Positions 55,900 to 63,922 are shown, counted from the first letter of the stretch. The stretch: 64,000 nt of DNA from Candidatus Heimdallarchaeota archaeon (GCA_016840095.1 JAEOSZ010000011.1:1-64000); one strand, 5' to 3'. The notes: generated by a model from the letters alone, not told the origin. Translations and numbers: made by a program.

Positions 55900-58800
55900 A
55901 TGAAAAAAAAGGCAATTTTGGGTTCAGCCTTGTTGGGTTTGACAATTATCCTTCTTACAATGAGCGGGTCAGTGACTCAAGCTCAGATAATTTCACAAAA
56001 CACCACACTCGACGCTGATATTCTGAACCCTGTTTTTGTAGAAGAAATGCGAATAATCGCTGGTATAGATTCTGCTGCCGTTGTAGAACTGGACCTAATA
56101 GGAGGCGCCATGCCTGCAATAGATGCAAATCCTCTATTCAGCGAAGTGAAAAGTTGGGCTTTTGTTGCTTCAAACCAATCAGATTTTCAAGATTATATTT
56201 TAAGGAGACCTTTCAAATCTCCCGAAAATGCTACACTTTTATTAGAAATTGATGCATCTTTAGGAGTTGGAGGTAGTTTGGTTAGAGCAATTGAAATAGC
56301 TTTATTATTTAATGCAGCTTACGGAACAAATTTGATGTGGTCAAGAGCTGAAGGCTTACTTGGAAGTTATTTATACATATTTTCAGGGAGTATGCCAGAA
56401 ACCATATTCAATACATTGATTACAGAATTTCAAACAGACATTAGTAATGGATTTGTGTCCCTACTCGATCCAGTTGAAGTAACTGATTCTCCTGTAAAAG
56501 TAGCTTTTATGGGTAACATGAAAGTTGATGGAAAGCTGACAGCAGCTAGAGGAGTATATTATATTGATCCAGATGCAATTACTGGAGCTACTACATATAC
56601 ATTATCAACTGATAATATATTTGGAGAAAATGTGTGGCCAAGAATCGCACTACAACCAATATTCTCGGTTCTAAAATTCAGATTCCCATATACAATAAAT
56701 CCTCTAAGTATTACACCAGATCCAAATAACTTTGCTCCTCAAATAACAGGAAAAATGGATTGGGATCTAAATACACCTTGGTCACTACCAAAACTTGGAA
56801 GTAATTATGAAGTTGTATTTAACATTAATCACACAGCACTAGCATCATCTCCTAGAGTATCTGTAAATATGGCATATGATCAAGATTTACTAAATACTGC
56901 AGGAAGATTACAGATGGACTATGTGGTTTCGAATACTGGAACTGAAGATGCTGTAGATATTGAGATTAGTTATCCTCTAGGACCTGATTTCTTAGATTTC
57001 TTAGCTCAAAAACCAAAACTTTGGGATTTGAGAGATGATGTAACTATTGATGAAGGATATTCAAATGCGATTACAGGAACTATATTGATGACCTTTGAAG
57101 GAGAAATGTTCATTGATGAAGGTTTATATCCAGATATCATTTATGAACAAGAATTTCTAATTCTTGATGGATGGTATCAGAATAATACTGATATGTCTTA
57201 TATTGATATAAATCCTGCAAATACTATTCAACAAGTTAAGACTGATAGTATGTTCTATGATCTGGGAATACCAGGACAAACAGGCACAGTATCAACTTAT
57301 ATAAACTTTAATTCATCACTTGGATTACCTAATGCATTAGTTGATCAAGCTACTGCTTTCTTAGCACCAATAAGTATGTTTGATTATGAATTACATACAC
57401 TTGGTGATCTAATTGCTGACTATCAATTTGAACTAAAAGATGCAGTACAAGCTGCAGGAGATTATTTGTTCAATATACTGTACTCTGAACAAGACATCTT
57501 TACCCCTGATACTATGGATTTTGATTTCATTACTAAAGAAATTGGTAGAGTGGGATTAGAAGATAGTTATAATGAAACTTTTCTGAGTACAATAATTCCA
57601 TTATTACATCCCGGTGAATCAGTTAACGTAAGCTGGGCTCTAGATAACATTCCCTCTCAAGCTAATCATTATGGAATGATGGGTCTAGATGAAGTAAATG
57701 TTGGAGCAAGTTTTCCTGCTTTACAATTGACTACTGTCGATAAAACTGGTTATGATGTCTTACGATATCTATTTGGTTTAGGCGATGCAATCTTACCTCA
57801 TTTAGGTGATAGATTCAGTAGACCATTAAGCTACTATGAGCCTTGGACAAATACTTGGTTATCAACTGGTGCAAGATTTGCATATATGGATGCAGAAGGT
57901 TTTGAATACTATGGATTCAGCAATGGAATTAATCTCCAAATAGCAGATGATGAAGCTGTTCTTAATGTGCATGTTTCGTTAAATCAAACTGCATACTTAG
58001 TAGGAGATCCTGTTACTGTCTATTATACAATAGAAAACACTGGAAATCTTCCAGCTGAAGAAGTAATTCTTGCTCTATATCATGGGCGAATGGGACCTGA
58101 TTGGCAATTGGTAGATCCTGAATTATTCTGGGTTGATGAAATTGGAACAATTGCACCAGGTGCAATATATAACAGTCAAGCTGATGTTCTAGCTAATTCC
58201 TTCTTGGGAATACACCCTGTTTATGGTGTTGTTGGTTTCAAGAGTGATGTTGGACAAACCATTTTATCCGATGGAATAATTGAATTATCTCCAGGATCAC
58301 TTGGATTAACATCTATCTTTGCTGGAGCTGCAGAAACCTATCAAATAGTTGCTTCTAATATGGATTGGGGTTTGGTTTTACCAAAGACTCTAAATAGAAG
58401 ACCAGCATTCCCACAACCAATACTAGACATTGATGTAAGTGTTGAGTATATCATTCCAACAGATGCTCCTTGGGAATTAGAAATCACTATAACTGTAACA
58501 AATATTGGTGATGAAAGAACCCATATAACTGCAGTTCAATTTTACAATGCAACTGAGATGCAATTATTACGTAAAACTACAACTAAAGGACTGACTGCAA
58601 ATGAAACATATCTAGGTATAGGTGTCATCAGATTCAAAGGAATAACTCTCCTACCTGGAGAATCTGTCATATTTACAATGAGATGGATGTTCCTTACTAG
58701 CTATGGTTGTTATATTCCTGGTATCATAATCGTTTATGATAGTAGATTCAGAAGTGATCTTGCGGTCGATGGAATTATCGAAGCACCTGATGTAACAGAT

Positions 58801-59019
58801 GCGGCTTTATTAGCTGCACTAGATGGGTCAGCTCAAGAAGAAGAAGATTGGGAAGATTATGGACAATCGACACAAACTGGATCCTCAGCGGGAGCTGATG
58901 TTTTCACAGGTGGAACTCATACAAGAAGACTAGGATCTTATGACATAGTATTCTGGTCAATCAGTGCAATCTTCGTTACAGCAGTCGCTACCGGCACAAG
59001 AAAGAAACTTAAAAAATAA
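55900..59019 (+). CDS. Large surface/S-layer-like glycoprotein with CARDB/Ig-like domains and C-terminal TM anchor
   Basis: Signal peptide, repeated V.NTG/NIG..A Ig-like motifs, acidic composition, C-terminal hydrophobic helix followed by RKKLKK. Confidence 0.82.
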   Translation: MKKKAILGSALLGLTIILLTMSGSVTQAQIISQNTTLDADILNPVFVEEMRIIAGIDSAAVVELDLIGGAMPAIDANPLFSEVKSWAFVASNQSDFQDYILRRPFKSPENATLLLEIDASLGVGGSLVRAIEIALLFNAAYGTNLMWSRAEGLLGSYLYIFSGSMPETIFNTLITEFQTDISNGFVSLLDPVEVTDSPVKVAFMGNMKVDGKLTAARGVYYIDPDAITGATTYTLSTDNIFGENVWPRIALQPIFSVLKFRFPYTINPLSITPDPNNFAPQITGKMDWDLNTPWSLPKLGSNYEVVFNINHTALASSPRVSVNMAYDQDLLNTAGRLQMDYVVSNTGTEDAVDIEISYPLGPDFLDFLAQKPKLWDLRDDVTIDEGYSNAITGTILMTFEGEMFIDEGLYPDIIYEQEFLILDGWYQNNTDMSYIDINPANTIQQVKTDSMFYDLGIPGQTGTVSTYINFNSSLGLPNALVDQATAFLAPISMFDYELHTLGDLIADYQFELKDAVQAAGDYLFNILYSEQDIFTPDTMDFDFITKEIGRVGLEDSYNETFLSTIIPLLHPGESVNVSWALDNIPSQANHYGMMGLDEVNVGASFPALQLTTVDKTGYDVLRYLFGLGDAILPHLGDRFSRPLSYYEPWTNTWLSTGARFAYMDAEGFEYYGFSNGINLQIADDEAVLNVHVSLNQTAYLVGDPVTVYYTIENTGNLPAEEVILALYHGRMGPDWQLVDPELFWVDEIGTIAPGAIYNSQADVLANSFLGIHPVYGVVGFKSDVGQTILSDGIIELSPGSLGLTSIFAGAAETYQIVASNMDWGLVLPKTLNRRPAFPQPILDIDVSVEYIIPTDAPWELEITITVTNIGDERTHITAVQFYNATEMQLLRKTTTKGLTANETYLGIGVIRFKGITLLPGESVIFTMRWMFLTSYGCYIPGIIIVYDSRFRSDLAVDGIIEAPDVTDAALLAALDGSAQEEEDWEDYGQSTQTGSSAGADVFTGGTHTRRLGSYDIVFWSISAIFVTAVATGTRKKLKK

Positions 59020-59047: not shown

Positions 59048-59107
59048 ACCCATGTAATAGCTTGTTTTAAATAGTGATTTGTCGCTAGATTCCAAGAGCG
59101 GAACTGA

Positions 59108-62098
59108 ATGACAATATCAGTTGAATCTAATTCAGATATGTACATCTTTGACAGCCTTATGCTATATAATTTTAAAATGCATAAGACTACAGATTTAAAG
59201 CTATCAGAAGTTCCAATTGTTGTCATTTCAGGCGCTAATGGGAGTGGAAAAACACAGATTTTGGAAGCTCTAATAATTGCAATAGGTCATGTCCCAAATA
59301 GAGTTTCATTGAGTACCTACAAAGAGGTTGTTGGTCCTTTTGACAAGTTCACTCAAATCAAACTTAAATTGAACAATCCACGATTAAGTGATAAAAGAGT
59401 TTTCACAACTTCGGACCCTGATTTAATACCGTATGTTGAAGAAGATTTTTTCATTGTTGATGTAAAAATAAATCATGATGGAAATATTAGAAGAAAGATA
59501 GTTGATAAGAGAGGAAAGGGAATAAACGTTACAAAGAAGCAAATCCAGATTCTAATGAGAAATATCGGAATATTTGACGATACCATGCTAAATTTTACTG
59601 AGGAAGGTTATCTTAGTTCTTTTGCCGATGGTTCCCCTCACAAGAAATTAGACAGTTTGCTAGTGGCAACAGGACTAAAAGAGATATTCAGTAGTTATAT
59701 CAACTCAAAGAAAAAAGTTCAAGAGAAGGAGAGAGAGTATTCACCTTTAGTAATGCAATTAGAAAAAGAGGAGAATAAATTAGAGAGACTCAGAGAGAAT
59801 TTTGATAGAATACAGAAAAAGAGAGAACTCATCGAAAAATATGATTTCCTTGAGAGGGAGTTATTCTGGTTTAATGCTATGGAAAGTCAGAAGCATTTAG
59901 AAGAATCAACTCAGAATCTTATTACTAAAAAGACTGAATTGGATGACATAGAAAAGAAGCTTGGTGCTTCTTTGATTGATCAAGAAAATCTTAGTGAAGA
60001 GGTAAAAAAAGTAGAGGAGTCTCTAGTTGATAGAAAGACCAAAATGAGAGAAATGTCTGACCAAAGAAATAGATTGGAAGGTCAGAAAGAAGAGAAAAAT
60101 AGAGCAGTAGTATCTTCAAAAAATCAGATAAGAAATATTAATCAGAAATTGAGTGAATTTGAGAATATTCAAACTGATGAGGGATTAACTCAAAAAAGAA
60201 ATTTGCAAAATCAACTGGATGATGTAAATAGAGAATTGTCTAGTCTGAACAGTGAACTACAAACTAGTCAGATAAATCTAAAAAACAAAGTTGTAGAAGA
60301 GGATAAAATTAAACAAAGAATTAACGAAAGATCTCAACTTTATGGAGAGTTATCCGATTATGAAAGAAAATTGATAAAGGACTGTATTTTATATAAAGAG
60401 AAAATTCAAAATTCAGATTTTAAGGATGAAATAATCGGACCAATTTACGAAATAATTTCGATAAAGAAAGGGTTCGAGAATTATACTGAAGTTGTAAAAA
60501 CATCTCTCGGAAGATCTCTTTTTGGATTTGTTGCTACTTCTCATAATGCATACAAAGAAGCAAAGCGAATCTATGATGAAGTTTTCCCCTCGTTTAAACC
60601 GAATTTCACAGTAGGGAGGGTATTAGAGGATGAAAAAGGTCCAAAACCTGATTACTTAACAAGCCAAATAATAGAAAATAAACCTGAAGGGATAATTGAT
60701 TTTGCAGTCAATTTAATTGAAGCTCCATTTCAAGTTAAGCTATATTTAGTTAAATTTGTAAGGATACTATTAGGTTCTCCATCATTACCTCCGAATCTCT
60801 TAACAGATTATGCAAAGCAATTCAAAACTAACATTCTGACAACTGATTGTAACAGTTACTATCTCTCTCAAGAAGCATTCTCAAGACCACCAAGAAGATA
60901 TAACTTAAAGTTGAGTTTAGATCTGAACAAATATCAGTCAATTGAAAGAATAAGAGAACAGCATCAATTAGTTCAATTTGATATCGAAAAGATAACAGAA
61001 GATAAAATCAGAATTACCAGAAGCTTAGCTGAATGTGAAGGTAATAAACGAGATTTAGAAACCCAATTGAAACCATGGAAAATGGGAGCTGACGAAATAG
61101 AGAATGAATTTTTAAGATTACAGCAAATCAGAACCGCTGCAGAATCCTTAGTAAGATCAGAAACTGAAAACCTTACTAAACTAGATACAGAAATTACTAA
61201 ACTTGCAGACAATATCATTGTAATTGAGAAAACTGTATCTGAAGAGCAGAAAAAATTCGATGTAGTAAGAAACAAGTTGAATAATTTAAATCAAGAAATC
61301 AAAGATTTTTCAGCTGAAAAAAATAAACTTATACGAATGATAGATTTTCTTGAAATAGAAGTATCTGATCTCAAAACAGCATTTGAAACACTAAATGAAC
61401 AAGCTGTTCAGAAAGGAGAACCTCCAGAAAATATCCGCTCTGATAAAGAGGAGATCTCCTCAGAATACAATAAAATTAAAGGACAATTAGAATTATTAGA
61501 TATTACCCCTGAAGTATCACAGGAAAGCATAGAAAAACAAGAACAACATGTCAATATCCTTCGTGATGAAGTGAAAAATACAGAAGTTCATTTGAATAAT
61601 CTGAAAGAAGATTTAGATAAAAGAATCAATGAGTGGGAAGGAGGACTTCACAATATTGTAGAACATTTGAATAAGATGTTGAGCTTGCTTCTTCAAGATA
61701 TCTTTGAGAATGTATCTATACAAATTCGAAATTATAATGATGAAAAAAATGCAGGGTTACATATTGAAGCAGAAACTAAAGGAGATAATAGAAAATATAG
61801 ACAACTCTCTGGGGGAGAAAAAACACTATTAGCTCAAGCGATAATTCTTGCGCTGCATATGATTAACCATTCTCCAATACATGCAATAGATGAGTTTACT
61901 CAAAAGCTTGATAAAAGGAATAAGGCTCTTGCATTTTCCATGGCTTTAGCAACATATAGAATTTCAAAAGAGAGTAGGATAATTACCCCTCAATTTATAC
62001 TTATAACACCCTCTCTCGATGATGTAGAACTCTCAAAAGAATTCGCTCATAAGGTTTTGATAGAGAGTAAAGTTAAGACTCCTGAGGTGAAAACTTGA
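59108..62098 (+). CDS. SMC-family ATPase, Smc5/6-related
   Basis: NFK.H, GANGSGKT, long coiled coil, central hinge (IIGPIYEII...), second coiled coil, LSGGEKT, AIDEFTQKLD, QFILITP. Confidence 0.9.
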   Translation: MTISVESNSDMYIFDSLMLYNFKMHKTTDLKLSEVPIVVISGANGSGKTQILEALIIAIGHVPNRVSLSTYKEVVGPFDKFTQIKLKLNNPRLSDKRVFTTSDPDLIPYVEEDFFIVDVKINHDGNIRRKIVDKRGKGINVTKKQIQILMRNIGIFDDTMLNFTEEGYLSSFADGSPHKKLDSLLVATGLKEIFSSYINSKKKVQEKEREYSPLVMQLEKEENKLERLRENFDRIQKKRELIEKYDFLERELFWFNAMESQKHLEESTQNLITKKTELDDIEKKLGASLIDQENLSEEVKKVEESLVDRKTKMREMSDQRNRLEGQKEEKNRAVVSSKNQIRNINQKLSEFENIQTDEGLTQKRNLQNQLDDVNRELSSLNSELQTSQINLKNKVVEEDKIKQRINERSQLYGELSDYERKLIKDCILYKEKIQNSDFKDEIIGPIYEIISIKKGFENYTEVVKTSLGRSLFGFVATSHNAYKEAKRIYDEVFPSFKPNFTVGRVLEDEKGPKPDYLTSQIIENKPEGIIDFAVNLIEAPFQVKLYLVKFVRILLGSPSLPPNLLTDYAKQFKTNILTTDCNSYYLSQEAFSRPPRRYNLKLSLDLNKYQSIERIREQHQLVQFDIEKITEDKIRITRSLAECEGNKRDLETQLKPWKMGADEIENEFLRLQQIRTAAESLVRSETENLTKLDTEITKLADNIIVIEKTVSEEQKKFDVVRNKLNNLNQEIKDFSAEKNKLIRMIDFLEIEVSDLKTAFETLNEQAVQKGEPPENIRSDKEEISSEYNKIKGQLELLDITPEVSQESIEKQEQHVNILRDEVKNTEVHLNNLKEDLDKRINEWEGGLHNIVEHLNKMLSLLLQDIFENVSIQIRNYNDEKNAGLHIEAETKGDNRKYRQLSGGEKTLLAQAIILALHMINHSPIHAIDEFTQKLDKRNKALAFSMALATYRISKESRIITPQFILITPSLDDVELSKEFAHKVLIESKVKTPEVKT

Positions 62099-62862
62099 CT
62101 GATCAAGATATAATTGATGATACTTCAGATATAATTTCAACCTATATAGAGGAGAATAGAGAATGGGTTGAGAATATATTTCAACTTGTTTTTGAGCTCA
62201 AGAGGAAATATGGTAAGTCAATAAGAAAGAAGGAAATTGTACAATTGATTGAATCTGAAGAGGATCGGTCCAAAGTTTCTGATGCTTATATATATTTGCA
62301 GAGTAAAAAAGAAAGTATTCTGGATTCAGCTCTTTATGAAGATTTCATCAAAATGAATGAATTAAGAGAAAATGATCTTTTAGAACAACTCCTTTATCCA
62401 CATGAAAGACTAAAAACTTTCGCAGATAAAGTAAAAAGTTTGTGTATTCCAATAACATATTTCTCAGGAACAACTAAAACATCCTATGAGGAACCTTTAA
62501 ACAATTTAACTGAAGAAGTAATAAATTTAGAATCAATGGAAGATATTAAGAATTTTTTGAATAAATATCAATCTTTCATGGAGCATCTATCGATAAATTT
62601 TCTAGATAAAGGTGACATCTTGAACATTGAAAATGAAATTAAGGAAAAGCTAGTAGGTAAGAAAATCAAGAAGAATAAGATGAACGAGCTCTTAACAACT
62701 TTAGAAGCTGAAGTTTTATCCAAATTAATAAGTGAAAAGAAAATTCAAGTGATTTTGAATGATGATGAACTAATTTTTCAAAACGAATTAGAAGAAGAAT
62801 CTGAAGTTATTTCAAGTTCAGTACTTCTCTCACCAAAAAATACGAATGAAGAAAGTGAATGA
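62095..62862 (+). CDS. Putative kleisin (ScpA/Nse4-like) subunit
   Basis: Overlaps the SMC stop codon; helical N-terminus; C-terminal winged-helix-like end (LSKLISEKKIQVILNDDELIF). The call rests mainly on context. Confidence 0.5.
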   Translation: MTDQDIIDDTSDIISTYIEENREWVENIFQLVFELKRKYGKSIRKKEIVQLIESEEDRSKVSDAYIYLQSKKESILDSALYEDFIKMNELRENDLLEQLLYPHERLKTFADKVKSLCIPITYFSGTTKTSYEEPLNNLTEEVINLESMEDIKNFLNKYQSFMEHLSINFLDKGDILNIENEIKEKLVGKKIKKNKMNELLTTLEAEVLSKLISEKKIQVILNDDELIFQNELEEESEVISSSVLLSPKNTNEESE

Positions 62863-63470
62863 TTATGGAAGAGAATCATCTGGAAGAGCCTATTGAAGTT
62901 AATGAGGTTGTAGAAGAAAATAATTTTCTACCTTCTTCTATATCAGATGAGGAAAAAGGAGAACTCTTTAGAGAACTTACAACAATTTTATCCAGAAAAT
63001 GGGTAAAAGAAAAAGTTACAGTATTTGGATGTTCAGAGCTTGATTTATTATTAGCAACTCGCTTCGATATCCAAACCTTGAGAGAAACAATTGATGAATA
63101 CAGATCATTTGTTCAGATCTTAGGTCTCAATGTCATTGAATATGATATGAATGGAGAAAAATGGTATTGTCTTAGATCTTCACATTACGCTCCATCCGAT
63201 TTACAATCAGCTGAATTGATTGTTTTAGGAACTATCATTGCTTATCTGGAAAGTGATAGAGATAAACCAATAACTACTGAAAGAATAAAAGAGAAATTAG
63301 TAATTACAGGAAAGATGAAAGAATATCTTGTAGAAAATAGTCTGAGGAGATTAACAAGGCTTGGGTATATTAAGAAAAAGCAAAGTGAGTGGGACTATAA
63401 CTACAGAACATTCATAGAATTTGGTGAAGATGAGAGGGAAAAAATCGTTGAGGAGTTCAGAAGGATTTGA
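62859..63470 (+). CDS. KITE (tandem winged-helix; Nse1/Nse3-MAGE/ScpB-like) subunit
   Basis: Two WH domains; ILGLNVIEY..WYCL, ELIVLGTII, LRRLTRLGYI..WDYNYRTFIEF. Confidence 0.72.
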   Translation: MIMEENHLEEPIEVNEVVEENNFLPSSISDEEKGELFRELTTILSRKWVKEKVTVFGCSELDLLLATRFDIQTLRETIDEYRSFVQILGLNVIEYDMNGEKWYCLRSSHYAPSDLQSAELIVLGTIIAYLESDRDKPITTERIKEKLVITGKMKEYLVENSLRRLTRLGYIKKKQSEWDYNYRTFIEFGEDEREKIVEEFRRI

Positions 63471-63922
63471 AGGGACAAGAAGCAATCTACTGCTATATCA
63501 GGTGTACTTTCTGTAATCAGATGAAAACTCTAAAAGATGCTGCTCTAGAAGGATGGGAAGTCTGCAACAGATGCCAGTTAGTTTTCTGTGATGAATGCAA
63601 AAAAGCTAATGAGAAAGAAGAATTATGTCCAGGATCTGTTTACACAACAAAACATTCAGCAAATTTTGACCTTCTTCCAGTTGAACAAATAATTGAAACT
63701 GCAAATAGCATTGAAAGGCAACCAAAGGAAAGCAAGTTTATATCAAAAATCTTCTTTGAAGATGAAAAGAAAAAAATTGAAGTCCTTAGAAGAAATAATA
63801 AGAAAAAAGATTCAGCTGATTTTAGTATTGTTAGATTTCGAGAAGAGCAATGGAGAAAATTTGGTACTGTTTTAGTTAAGAGGAAAGATGGTAAATTTCT
63901 AACTTGGGGTCAATTAGAATAA
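63467..63922 (+). CDS. RING-like Zn-finger protein in the SMC operon
   Basis: C13-x2-C-x16-C-x2-C-x4-C-x2-C-x9-C-x8-H; the TTG start overlaps the KITE stop. Confidence 0.72.
   Translation: MKGQEAIYCYIRCTFCNQMKTLKDAALEGWEVCNRCQLVFCDECKKANEKEELCPGSVYTTKHSANFDLLPVEQIIETANSIERQPKESKFISKIFFEDEKKKIEVLRRNNKKKDSADFSIVRFREEQWRKFGTVLVKRKDGKFLTWGQLE

Follow-up and report, generated by a model that had tools for sequence, protein, structure and literature searches.

The gene at positions 59,108 to 62,098 of the window (the whole stretch of 64,000 nucleotides analysed here, from Candidatus Heimdallarchaeota archaeon) encodes a 996-aa protein that is probably, at roughly 0.8, the SMC subunit of an archaeal SMC5/6-related complex. 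SMC5/6-related SMCs have already been described in archaea (Yoshinaga and Inagaki, 2021, PMC8665677), as have SMC5/6-related SMC-kleisin-kite operons in TACK and Asgard archaea (van Hooff et al., 2024/25, bioRxiv 10.1101/2024.01.07.573240); therefore, the window protein is a further, verified member of a published group and not a discovery. The gene heads a four-gene operon, whose parts are as follows.

59065..59073, plus strand: TATA-like box TTTTAAATA, about 39 nt 5′ of the ATG, read from the sequence itself; a candidate archaeal promoter for the operon
59108..62098, plus strand: SMC subunit, 996 aa, probably of the SMC5/6-related archaeal type (Asgard-type clade), from translation, profiles and tree
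59108..59707, plus strand: N-terminal half of the ATPase head (N-head), about residues 1–200, including R65, from the N-head profile
59231..59254, plus strand: Walker A, GANGSGKT, residues 42–49, invariant in the family
59603..59605, plus strand: E166, standing where a Q-loop glutamine would be expected, from the cross-group and Smc6 alignments
59708..60409, plus strand: ascending coiled-coil arm, about residues 201–434, from an unbroken profile alignment with the N arm of Smc6 and a helix running to hinge-model residue 35
60410..60922, plus strand: hinge domain, about residues 435–605, from the AF2 model, Foldseek/VIA matches and hinge profile
60437-60442, plus strand: G444-P445 of the first hinge strand, I-I-G-P, from motif comparison
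60923..61612, plus strand: descending coiled-coil arm, about residues 606–835, from a helix starting at hinge-model residue 207 and stretches free of proline and glycine
61613..62095, plus strand: C-terminal half of the ATPase head (C-head), about residues 836–996, from the C-head profile and a single-sequence search
61805..61822, plus strand: ABC signature, LSGGEK, residues 900–905, from translation and family alignment
61886..61912, plus strand: Walker B and D-loop, IDEFTQKLD, residues 927–935, from translation and alignments
61991..62011, plus strand: last head strand, QFILITP, residues 962–968, from translation and alignments
62095..62862, plus strand: 255-aa protein with a 4-nt overlap with the SMC stop; a candidate kleisin on positional grounds and by elimination
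62859..63470, plus strand: 203-aa KITE subunit with a tandem winged helix, from an AF2 model (pLDDT 81) and structural matches
63467..63922, plus strand: 151-aa cysteine-rich protein, the fourth operon gene, from ORF coordinates and sequence

The 996-aa protein has the full build of an SMC, with an ABC head in two halves, a pair of arms of about 230 aa each and a hinge of the SMC-hinge fold, and its Walker A, Walker B and signature motifs are intact; the Pfam SMC_N model matches residues 16–945. In the family alignment, GANGSGKT, the hhhhDE of Walker B (E929), LSGGEK and R65 in the N-head are all invariant. The initial annotation had pointed to the D-loop IDEFTQKLD and to a last strand, QFILITP, without an H-loop histidine; both are present in the translation and conserved in the family, with P968 occupying the position of the H-loop histidine of canonical SMC and Rad50, and H981 the sole histidine beyond residue 930. 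Because D928, E929, F930, L934, D935, Q962, F963, L965, I966, P968, G444 and P445 are invariant in the 25-member family alignment, the D-loop, last-strand and hinge-start motifs are not due to chance. The Smc5, Smc6 and canonical motifs that had been given for comparison agree with actual sequences, namely VVDEINQGMD...QYFFITPKL in human SMC5 (PDB 9lwi_I), DEFDVFMD...ITPQ in 14 eukaryotic Smc6 and DEIDA(A/F)LD...ITH/VSH in canonical SMCs, and the replacement of TH by TP is common to the aligned Smc5, Smc6, Bathyarchaeia-type and Thor/Promethearchaeota-type proteins.

The site of the Q-loop glutamine reads NFTEEG in the window protein, versus FLSQD in Smc6 and QG in canonical SMC. In the cross-group alignment this glutamine is absent across the Asgard-type clade, where E, A, G or K stands instead, with the exception of one protein (P0109) that keeps it, and it is kept in all of the canonical SMC, Rad50-like, Bathyarchaeia-type, Thor-type and Smc6 rows aligned. 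The absence from the Asgard-type clade of an otherwise universal catalytic-site residue (E166 here) is an addition from the present work; a published Smc5/6 biochemistry study that was searched for remarks on the Q-loop or H-loop yielded none. Together, the proline-for-histidine exchange common to Smc5/6 (P968) and the glutamate-for-glutamine exchange specific to the Asgard type (E166) suggest that the ATPase cycle may be tuned differently from that of canonical SMC, and the loss of the one residue on top of the other makes such a change testable.

The placement of the protein as Smc5/6-like, and not as canonical Smc or Rad50, which the initial annotation had proposed from these motifs, is supported by both profiles and the head tree. 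A whole-length family profile compared with the PDB ranked yeast Smc6 (2.5e-32), human SMC6 (1.5e-24) and human SMC5 (1.2e-21) above Smc4/2 (about 1e-16), archaeal Smc (2.6e-13) and Rad50 (5e-8). The corresponding N-head profile scored 49.6 bits with yeast Smc6, 43.1 bits with human Smc6 and 38.8 bits with Pyrococcus Smc, and it reached no Smc5 at E<=0.01. The C-head profile scored 66.3 bits with human SMC5, against about 45 bits for SMC6, canonical SMC and cohesin, and a single-sequence C-head search found human SMC5 at 1.8e-10; yeast Smc5, at 43.7 bits, is level with Pyrococcus Smc (44.5 bits), and the excess of the C-head above canonical SMC thus depends on human SMC5 alone. The proposed mixture of Smc5-like and Smc6-like features is supported in part, by a Smc6-like N-terminal half and a C-head resembling human SMC5, but yeast Smc5 is unremarkable in this respect and the Q-loop glutamine is missing. 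The idea itself has already been published. In a library-wide profile search, only 194 proteins were found at E<=1e-30, and the best 150 of these included 14 eukaryotic Smc6, named Smc6 or rad18 at their source, and no Smc5. One Bathyarchaeia C-head has QSGGERS in common with Smc5, and the matches listed in a protein search from that C-head were from Bathyarchaeia only.

A globular hinge had been placed near position 60431, and the hinge indeed begins there, at residue 442, with the family-conserved IIGPIYEI. The hinge start of yeast Smc6, AIGPLGSLVTIRKGFEKW...AFVV, aligns with that of the window protein, in keeping with the GP..AFVV pattern given for Smc6; the window protein has GP where canonical hinges have G-x-G and ends in ...SRPP where they end in ...TGG, and the RPP/PR at the hinge end counts, with the hinge GP and the TP-for-TH exchange, among the shared derived motifs that favour the Smc5/6 reading. 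A hinge-only profile matched Smc6 alone in the PDB (E 2e-4), the next match being a canonical hinge at E 0.73. The Pfam hinge model (SMC_hinge, PF06470) gave no match at E<=1 in the window protein, and the orthologues in the closed genomes G026 and G074 barely exceed its cut-off, at 24–28 bits. The fold of the hinge is less specific: for the AF2 model (pLDDT 90.8), the Foldseek and VIA matches were all SMC hinges, and in VIA-align Smc6 came top (Z 13.7), followed by cohesin (12.6–13.3) and canonical prokaryotic SMC (10.8–11.8). Because the cohesin hinges tie with Smc6, the fold neither refutes nor discriminates the Smc5/6 reading, and it was dropped as a discriminator, Smc6 being first but cohesin and bacterial hinges lying within 1–3 Z units. 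Arms shorter than those of canonical Smc had also been noted, and the span from Walker A to the D-loop is 886 aa here versus 916–951 aa in Smc6 and 1086–1088 aa in canonical SMC. The absence of a central zinc hook is likewise borne out, since the 996-aa protein, with three cysteines in all, contains no CxxC.

A head-domain tree was inferred with IQ-TREE under LG+C20+F+G4 PMSF from 62 rows and 378 columns; it covers 11 Smc6 rows, the only eukaryotic SMCs in it, and 12 Bathyarchaeia-type rows, and its outgroup is two near-identical Rad50-like rows. The maximum-likelihood tree, as called for by the initial annotation, placed the window protein in a clade supported at 99/98 that consists of the Asgard type, the Bathyarchaeia type and eukaryotic Smc6, with canonical SMC outside. 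Within this clade, the Asgard type is sister to the Bathyarchaeia type plus eukaryotic Smc6; eukaryotic Smc6 thus groups with the Bathyarchaeia type and not with the Asgard type, but the AU test does not reject the alternative (p 0.275). A tree of the N-head only gave the same group (SH-aLRT 84), and a quick tree of the C-head only did not recover the SMC5/6 supergroup. A FastTree topology that set Smc6 beside the Rad50-like outgroup was put aside as likely long-branch attraction, and the mixture-model tree was preferred.

Quite improbable is a canonical (condensin-like) archaeal SMC that has evolved fast and resembles Smc5/6 through convergence or a long-branch artefact. Such a reading would account for the top NCBIfam matches, which are the canonical models TIGR02168 and TIGR02169, for the C-head scores, level between canonical SMC and most Smc5/6 chains, for the near-equal fit of cohesin and bacterial hinges, for the failure of FastTree to recover the SMC5/6 grouping and for the protein being the sole SMC of its family, a status to be expected of a canonical SMC. 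The NCBIfam matches, however, are far under their cut-offs (TIGR02168, 117.5 bits versus 567; TIGR02169, 77.5 bits versus 729), whereas a fragment of a genuine canonical SMC from the window's bin reaches 520 bits with TIGR02169. Constraining the window SMC to canonical SMC in the mixture-model tree, which excludes canonical SMC at 99/98, costs 19.3 lnL units (AU p 0.045, borderline), and the lack of a Pfam SMC_hinge match, together with the TP-for-TH exchange, hinge GP and short arms common to the window protein and Smc6, further argues against this reading. Moreover, two other families (f6 and f16) carry both the window-type and the canonical SMC, and the two are therefore paralogues.

The SMC family is present in 24 of the 26 genomes of the window's taxonomic family, and most relatives carry a single copy. 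In the closed genomes G026 and G074 and in genome G133, no canonical SMC, ScpA or ScpB was found. The bin of the window does contain a canonical SMC, on two contigs that are 3.9 and 3.1 kb long, but it is 88% identical to the copy of an f6 genome, and 25 of the 26 genomes in the family to which the window belongs lack canonical SMC. The canonical SMC-ScpA and Rad50 of the bin were accordingly rejected as the organism's own on account of the short contigs, the likeness to f6 and the absence in 25/26 genomes; the canonical SMC contigs look like contamination, and a contig of 3.2 kb carries the Rad50 fragment, whose ownership is equally uncertain. Thus, as a second addition from the present work, this archaeal (Heimdall) family seems to have no SMC other than the Smc5/6-type one.

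The gene order of the operon is kept in 10 relatives. The 255-aa protein stands in the same position in 11 relatives; it had no Pfam or NCBIfam match, its sole PDB profile match was Nse1, a KITE protein (E 8e-4), it showed no relation to ScpA-like profiles in hhalign (probability 0.2), and a protein atlas gave no usable match. Neither ScpA nor Nse4_C was found elsewhere in the genomes of the window's taxonomic family. For the 203-aa protein, the full-length structural matches were KITE proteins only (ScpB, Nse1, Nse3 and MukE), with Nse1 (Z 10.3) tied with ScpB (9.9), so that an Nse1/3-like and a ScpB-like subtype are not separated; its sequence profile gave weak, generic winged-helix matches only in the PDB. 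The N-terminus of the 151-aa protein is conserved 3′ of the kite gene in 10 relatives.

Slightly less probable than a canonical SMC is an SMC of a MukBEF- or Wadjet (JetABC)-kind system, acting in defence or plasmid restriction and not as a housekeeping chromosome organiser. [quoted passage not shown] Since the operon is fixed, the gene occurs in 24/26 family genomes and the closed genomes hold no other SMC, a core function fits better than a patchy defence island. A Rad50/SbcC-like or SMC-related repair ATPase (ASRP, ClsN or arcadin-4 type) is very remote: a single-sequence N-head search ranks Rad50 top, for the P-loop segment only (residues 14–62, E 5.6e-4), and NCBIfam gives weak matches to ASRP (NF045487, 52.7 bits versus a cut-off of 300) and to Rad50 models (about 41 versus 1000), but the protein carries a 170-aa mid-protein hinge of the SMC fold in place of a CxxC hook, its neighbours are a KITE protein and a kleisin candidate with no Mre11, and the closed relatives have separate Rad50-like genes, which served as the outgroup of the tree.

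As the SMC subunit of an SMC5/6-related complex, two copies of the protein would dimerise through the hinge, since the operon encodes one SMC and the closed family genomes hold no other. ATP would be sandwiched between the Walker A of one head and the LSGGEK of the other, the 255-aa candidate kleisin would connect one SMC copy at its neck with the other at its cap, a KITE dimer would bind this candidate kleisin, and the complex may clamp or extrude DNA. Because the family genomes are without canonical SMC, ScpA and ScpB, the complex probably performs general chromosome organisation in addition to any repair role.

Smc6 is the kleisin-N-binding ν-SMC and Smc5 the kleisin-C-binding κ-SMC. The division of likeness between a Smc6-like N-terminal half and a Smc5-like C-head is what would be seen if a homodimer's neck and cap interfaces had been shared out between paralogues following a duplication. 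A tentative and on balance doubtful extension is that the Asgard-type clade, and not the Bathyarchaeia type, was the direct source of both Smc5 and Smc6. Under this proposal, a single chain would unite the interfaces that were later split between the paralogues, its N-head, neck and hinge start being nearest to Smc6 and its C-terminal cap nearest to Smc5, and would form the only SMC machine of the family with a head that has neither the Q-loop glutamine nor the H-loop histidine; in that case, a complex of the Smc5/6 type would be able to perform all of a cell's chromosome organisation. [quoted passage not shown] A Heimdall family seemingly reliant on a Smc5/6-type complex alone offers a natural test of what such a complex can do without condensin-like help, and the compactness of the operon, with four genes and an SMC of 996 aa, makes it a handy target for reconstitution and structural work.

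Among known systems, canonical SMC-ScpAB (Pyrococcus Smc, 5xns and 4i99) resembles the window system in architecture, homodimer logic, kleisin and kite partners and hinge fold; unlike it, the window protein falls far under the TIGR02168 and TIGR02169 cut-offs and outside the canonical clade, has arms each about 100 aa shorter, and reads DEFTQKLD and ITP in place of DEIDAALD and ITH. Rad50/SbcC differs in its central CxxC zinc hook and its Mre11/SbcD partner, the window protein having a globular hinge and kite and kleisin-candidate neighbours. Eukaryotic Smc5 (PDB 9lwi_I, human; 7qcd_A, yeast) is similar in the C-head, where human SMC5 is the top match, in the ITP of the last strand and in the glutamine at D-loop position 5 (DEINQGMD versus DEFTQKLD), and has QSGGER versus LSGGEK in the signature. 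Eukaryotic Smc6 (PDB 7qcd_B, 8i4x_B and 9lwi_A) is the top profile match for the N-head, ascending arm and hinge start, and shares the D-loop start DEF, the TP-for-TH exchange, the hinge GP, LSGGEK and a similar arm span. Unlike the window protein, it keeps the Q-loop glutamine and has an N-terminal extension of 50–150 aa, the identity being just about 15–19%, and it forms a heterodimer with Smc5 and has Nse2 and Nse5/6 as partners, whereas the window operon has one SMC gene. The closest likeness is to the SMC5/6-related archaeal SMCs, which group with eukaryotic Smc5/6 and not with canonical SMC, have their own kite and presumed kleisin in the operon, are predicted to be homodimers and occur in Asgard archaea, where some lineages have both SMC types and others one; the window protein differs in its position, in an Asgard-type sub-clade whose sister is the Bathyarchaeia (TACK) type together with Smc6 and which is not nested with Smc6, in the lack of the Q-loop glutamine from this sub-clade, and in the fourth, cysteine-rich gene of its operon.

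The SMC gene lies at the head of a cluster of four genes, in which each of the three following open reading frames overlaps its predecessor by 4 nt:

55900–59019: upstream gene, 1039-aa protein
39 nt upstream of the SMC ATG: TATA-like TTTTAAATA, read from the sequence
59108–62098, + strand: SMC open reading frame, 996 aa by translation
59603–59605: E166 at the Q-loop Gln position (NFTEEG), from the alignment
60431: start of the SMC hinge, IIGPIYEI
62095–62862, + strand: 255-aa kleisin candidate
62859–63470, + strand: 203-aa KITE protein
63467–63922, + strand: 151-aa Cys-rich protein

The translated protein carries Walker A (GANGSGKT), signature (LSGGEK) and Walker B/D-loop (IDEFTQKLD) motifs, and its last head strand is QFILITP, with Pro at the expected position of the H-loop His; it contains only three cysteines and no CxxC. 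The D-loop, the missing H-loop His, the absence of a Zn hook and the hinge start are all confirmed as described in the initial annotation, and the quoted motif residues show no or almost no variation among 25 aligned family members with identities down to 27%. The Walker A-to-D-loop span is 886 aa, compared with 916–951 in Smc6 and 1086–1088 in canonical SMC, so that each arm is shorter than in canonical SMC, as had been noted, the difference being about 100 residues, and near Smc6 in length. In Pfam, SMC_N covers aa 16–945, and no SMC_hinge match was obtained. The contig derives from marine sediment metagenomes, and the homologues in Heimdallarchaeaceae and Heimdallarchaeota MAGs carry no label more specific than “AAA family ATPase” or “chromosome segregation ATPase”.

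Membership in the canonical SMC, Rad50 and ASRP families of NCBIfam was rejected, as all scores fall far below the curated cut-offs (117.5 vs. 567 and 77.5 vs. 729 for canonical SMC, about 41 vs. 1000 for Rad50, and 52.7 vs. 300 for ASRP). A Rad50 hook or MukB-type hinge is ruled out by the fold of the predicted hinge. This model, which comprises the hinge and coiled-coil stubs (aa 400–650; mean pLDDT 90.8), has SMC hinges throughout as its strong structural matches and, as a prediction, proves that a true SMC hinge is present; matches to JetC (Z 5.5) and MukB (Z 4.3–4.6) are far lower. The Smc6 hinge 8i4x_B ranks first (Z 13.7, rmsd 3.6 Å, 171 residues aligned), but other SMC hinges follow closely (SMC1/SMC3, Z 12.6–13.3; S. 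pombe Smc5/6, 12.3; T. maritima, 11.5; P. furiosus, 10.9), and the predicted fold cannot separate Smc5/6 from canonical SMC. At the first hinge strand, the Asgard types and Smc6 share [ILV]-G-P, whereas canonical SMC has G-[IV]-x-G-[AT], and the hinge ends in RPP in the Asgard types, PR in Smc6 and TGG in canonical SMC; by these motifs, the hinge sides with Smc6.

When a whole-length family profile was searched against all PDB chains, the best match was yeast Smc6 (E 2.5e-32, 115 bits), followed by human SMC6 (1.5e-24), human SMC5 (1.2e-21), Smc4 (1.3e-16), Smc2 (2e-15), yeast Smc5 (8e-15), Pyrococcus Smc (2.6e-13) and Rad50 (about 5e-8), and the alignment with yeast Smc6 is unbroken over aa 13–476, which take in the head, the arm and the hinge start. 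As a guard against coiled-coil effects, domain-only profiles were built from 14 orthologues (25–91% identity to the protein by domain). The N-head profile matched yeast Smc6 (49.6 bits), human SMC6 (43.1), Pyrococcus Smc (38.8) and, over the P-loop segment only, Rad50 (36.5), with no match to Smc5 at E ≤ 0.01. The hinge profile matched yeast Smc6 alone (24 bits, E 2e-4), the next being a canonical hinge at E 0.73. The C-head profile was topped by human SMC5 (66.3 bits), above a plateau of approximately 43–45 bits formed by human SMC6, Pyrococcus Smc, yeast Smc5, SMC3 and Smc1, and yeast Smc6 at 35.7. Over the whole length and in each domain, the best match is of the Smc5/6 type, by a solid margin for the N-terminal half and hinge start; for the C-head, the margin depends on one species.

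The family profile, run in a full HMMER search against 1.84 billion representatives, matched only 194 proteins at E ≤ 1e-30. The best 150 of these include the Heimdall family, eukaryotic Smc6, a few canonical SMCs, other Asgard-type proteins with DEFTQ[RK]LD or DEFDKGLD (the named ones from Hodarchaeota and Promethearchaeota), the Bathyarchaeia type (QSGGERS...DEFDVHMD...ITPG; forms of ~1000 and ~600 aa) and a third Asgard type from Thorarchaeota and Promethearchaeota. For phylogeny, N- and C-head blocks were cut at motif anchors and then aligned (62 rows, 378 columns; Smc5 and Smc1–4 not included), with two near-identical Rad50-like proteins as the outgroup; the five canonical rows, two of them Asgard SMCs from relatives' genomes, were chosen for their high similarity to the query profile, a choice that would if anything bias against the result. 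The IQ-TREE mixture-model tree has canonical SMC as its first branch and the Thor/Promethearchaeota type as its second, after which comes a clade (99/98) uniting the Bathyarchaeia type plus Smc6 (97/94) with the Asgard type, the protein described here included (100/99). The protein thus falls with Smc6 and apart from canonical SMC in this Smc5-free tree. Forcing the Asgard-type clade with canonical SMC cost 19.3 lnL (AU p 0.045); forcing it with Smc6 to the exclusion of the Bathyarchaeia type cost only 3.5 lnL (p 0.275). The supergroup was recovered from the N-head alone (SH-aLRT 84) and not from the C-head alone, which gave no well-supported contradiction either. A FastTree topology with Smc6 beside the outgroup was read as long-branch attraction.

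Among these relatives, the third Asgard type (P0194, P0223 and P0247; 1126–1172 aa), which branches after canonical SMC and before the SMC5/6-related supergroup, keeps the Q-loop Gln and has Pro for the H-loop His and GP at the hinge start. Approximately 40 further proteins resemble P0163 and P0166, which are SMC5/6-type proteins of 550–690 aa from Bathyarchaeia with full heads and only about one third of the usual arm-plus-hinge length; they group tightly with the ~1000-aa Bathyarchaeia forms (P0191, P0211) and Smc6, and their QSGGERS and PFR-VDE motifs look nearer to Smc5 than the motifs described here.

The bin also holds a canonical SMC followed by an ScpA-like gene on two short, near-identical contigs (3.9 and 3.1 kb; G000:C73, L011:1333-3903:- and 362-1297:-, and G000:C139), as would be expected if the organism had two SMC paralogues. 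This was rejected as evidence of within-organism paralogy: the contigs are short, the protein shares 88% identity with the SMC of a genome from another family (f6), and the search for canonical SMC was negative in 25 of the 26 Heimdallarchaeaceae genomes sampled, the exception being a 72%-complete bin (G205) with several copies on short contigs. With bin contamination at 7.8%, these genes are very likely contaminants rather than a second SMC of the organism, and the same origin is possible for a Rad50 fragment found on contig C146 (3.2 kb). Two closed genomes and one 20-contig genome of the family contain no canonical SMC, ScpB or ScpA, and their sole hinge-bearing protein is the orthologue of the SMC described here; the Smc5/6-type complex is apparently the only SMC machine of this family, which is in line with the either/or distribution that Yoshinaga and Inagaki (2021, PMC8665677) reported. 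Families f6 and f16 hold both types, showing that the two are paralogues. The canonical SMC of f6, a Heimdall-class family (L043, L046), is otherwise canonical and has IIISL at its last head strand, so that it also lacks the H-loop His.

Among relatives, the four-gene order is kept at all 10 loci with enough downstream sequence; an eleventh stops within the second gene. The third product is predicted to form two winged helices in tandem (pLDDT 81), and its full-length structural matches are KITE proteins only (ScpB, Nse1, Nse3, MukE and JetB). The structure does not separate its subtype, as Nse1 scores Z 10.3 and ScpB is level with it at Z 9.9. The second product is, by position, a candidate and as yet unproven kleisin. 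It gave no Pfam or NCBIfam match and no relation to ScpA-like proteins, and no ScpA or Nse4_C match was found elsewhere in genomes of the family. Its sole PDB profile match is the KITE protein Nse1 (7dg2_A, E 8e-4, residues 36–146); this may be due to chance, or the product may itself be another kite rather than a kleisin. Upstream, the 1039-aa protein has a signal-like N-terminal segment, one CARDB domain match and, at the C terminus, a hydrophobic anchor with basic residues after it. This is likely a surface protein with no apparent link to the SMC operon. In four genomes of the genus (G208, G157, G145 and G154; e.g., loci L020–L022), the open frame of the SMC orthologue contains one in-frame TGA, probably just upstream of the true start.

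The Asgard-type clade departs from Smc5/6 at the Q-loop. The Gln is present in the canonical SMC, Rad50-like, Bathyarchaeia-type, Thor-type and Smc6 rows of the alignment, whereas members of the Asgard-type clade (P0105–P0165) have E, A, G or K, with the exception of P0109, which keeps Q. On this alignment, two classical ABC catalytic-site residues, the Q-loop Gln and the H-loop His, are replaced, with Walker A, Walker B and the signature intact. No earlier mention of the Q-loop replacement was found in the available text of the literature on SMC5/6-related archaeal SMCs.

The Smc5, Smc6 and canonical motifs given in the initial annotation, and the Smc6 hinge pattern, proved right on real sequences. 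VVDEINQGMD...QYFFITPKL of human SMC5 (9lwi_I) aligns with AIDEFTQKLD...QFILITPSL of the archaeal protein; 14 eukaryotic proteins from the library-wide search read LSGGEKS...DEFDVFMD...ITPQ (names were checked for four, being Smc6 or rad18 by source, or fungal without a specific name, and the others were assigned to Smc6 through common motifs and the N-terminal extension); canonical SMC reads DEIDA(A/F)LD...ITH or VSH; and the hinge start of yeast Smc6, AIGPLGSLVTIRKGFEKW...AFVV, aligns with that of the protein. The Smc5/6-like reading, which profiles, tree and motifs support, is correct yet not new, because such SMCs and their operons have been published. Yoshinaga and Inagaki (2021, PMC8665677) defined “SMC5/6-related aSMC” from 80 homologues in GenBank, mostly from TACK and some from Asgard archaea, and proposed homodimeric complexes of these as ancestral to Smc5/6; Van Hooff et al. 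(bioRxiv 10.1101/2024.01.07.573240) described SMC5/6-related SMC-kleisin-kite operons in TACK and Asgard archaea, with kleisins that branch with Nse4 and an Nse1/3-like kite archetype. The protein is an uncharacterised addition to this group, and in the tree it belongs to a sister clade and is not a demonstrated direct ancestor type. Modest additions worth follow-up are its status as the sole SMC in the family, the loss of the Q-loop Gln and a split resemblance, in which the N-terminal half is nearest to Smc6 and the C-head, on one species, to Smc5.
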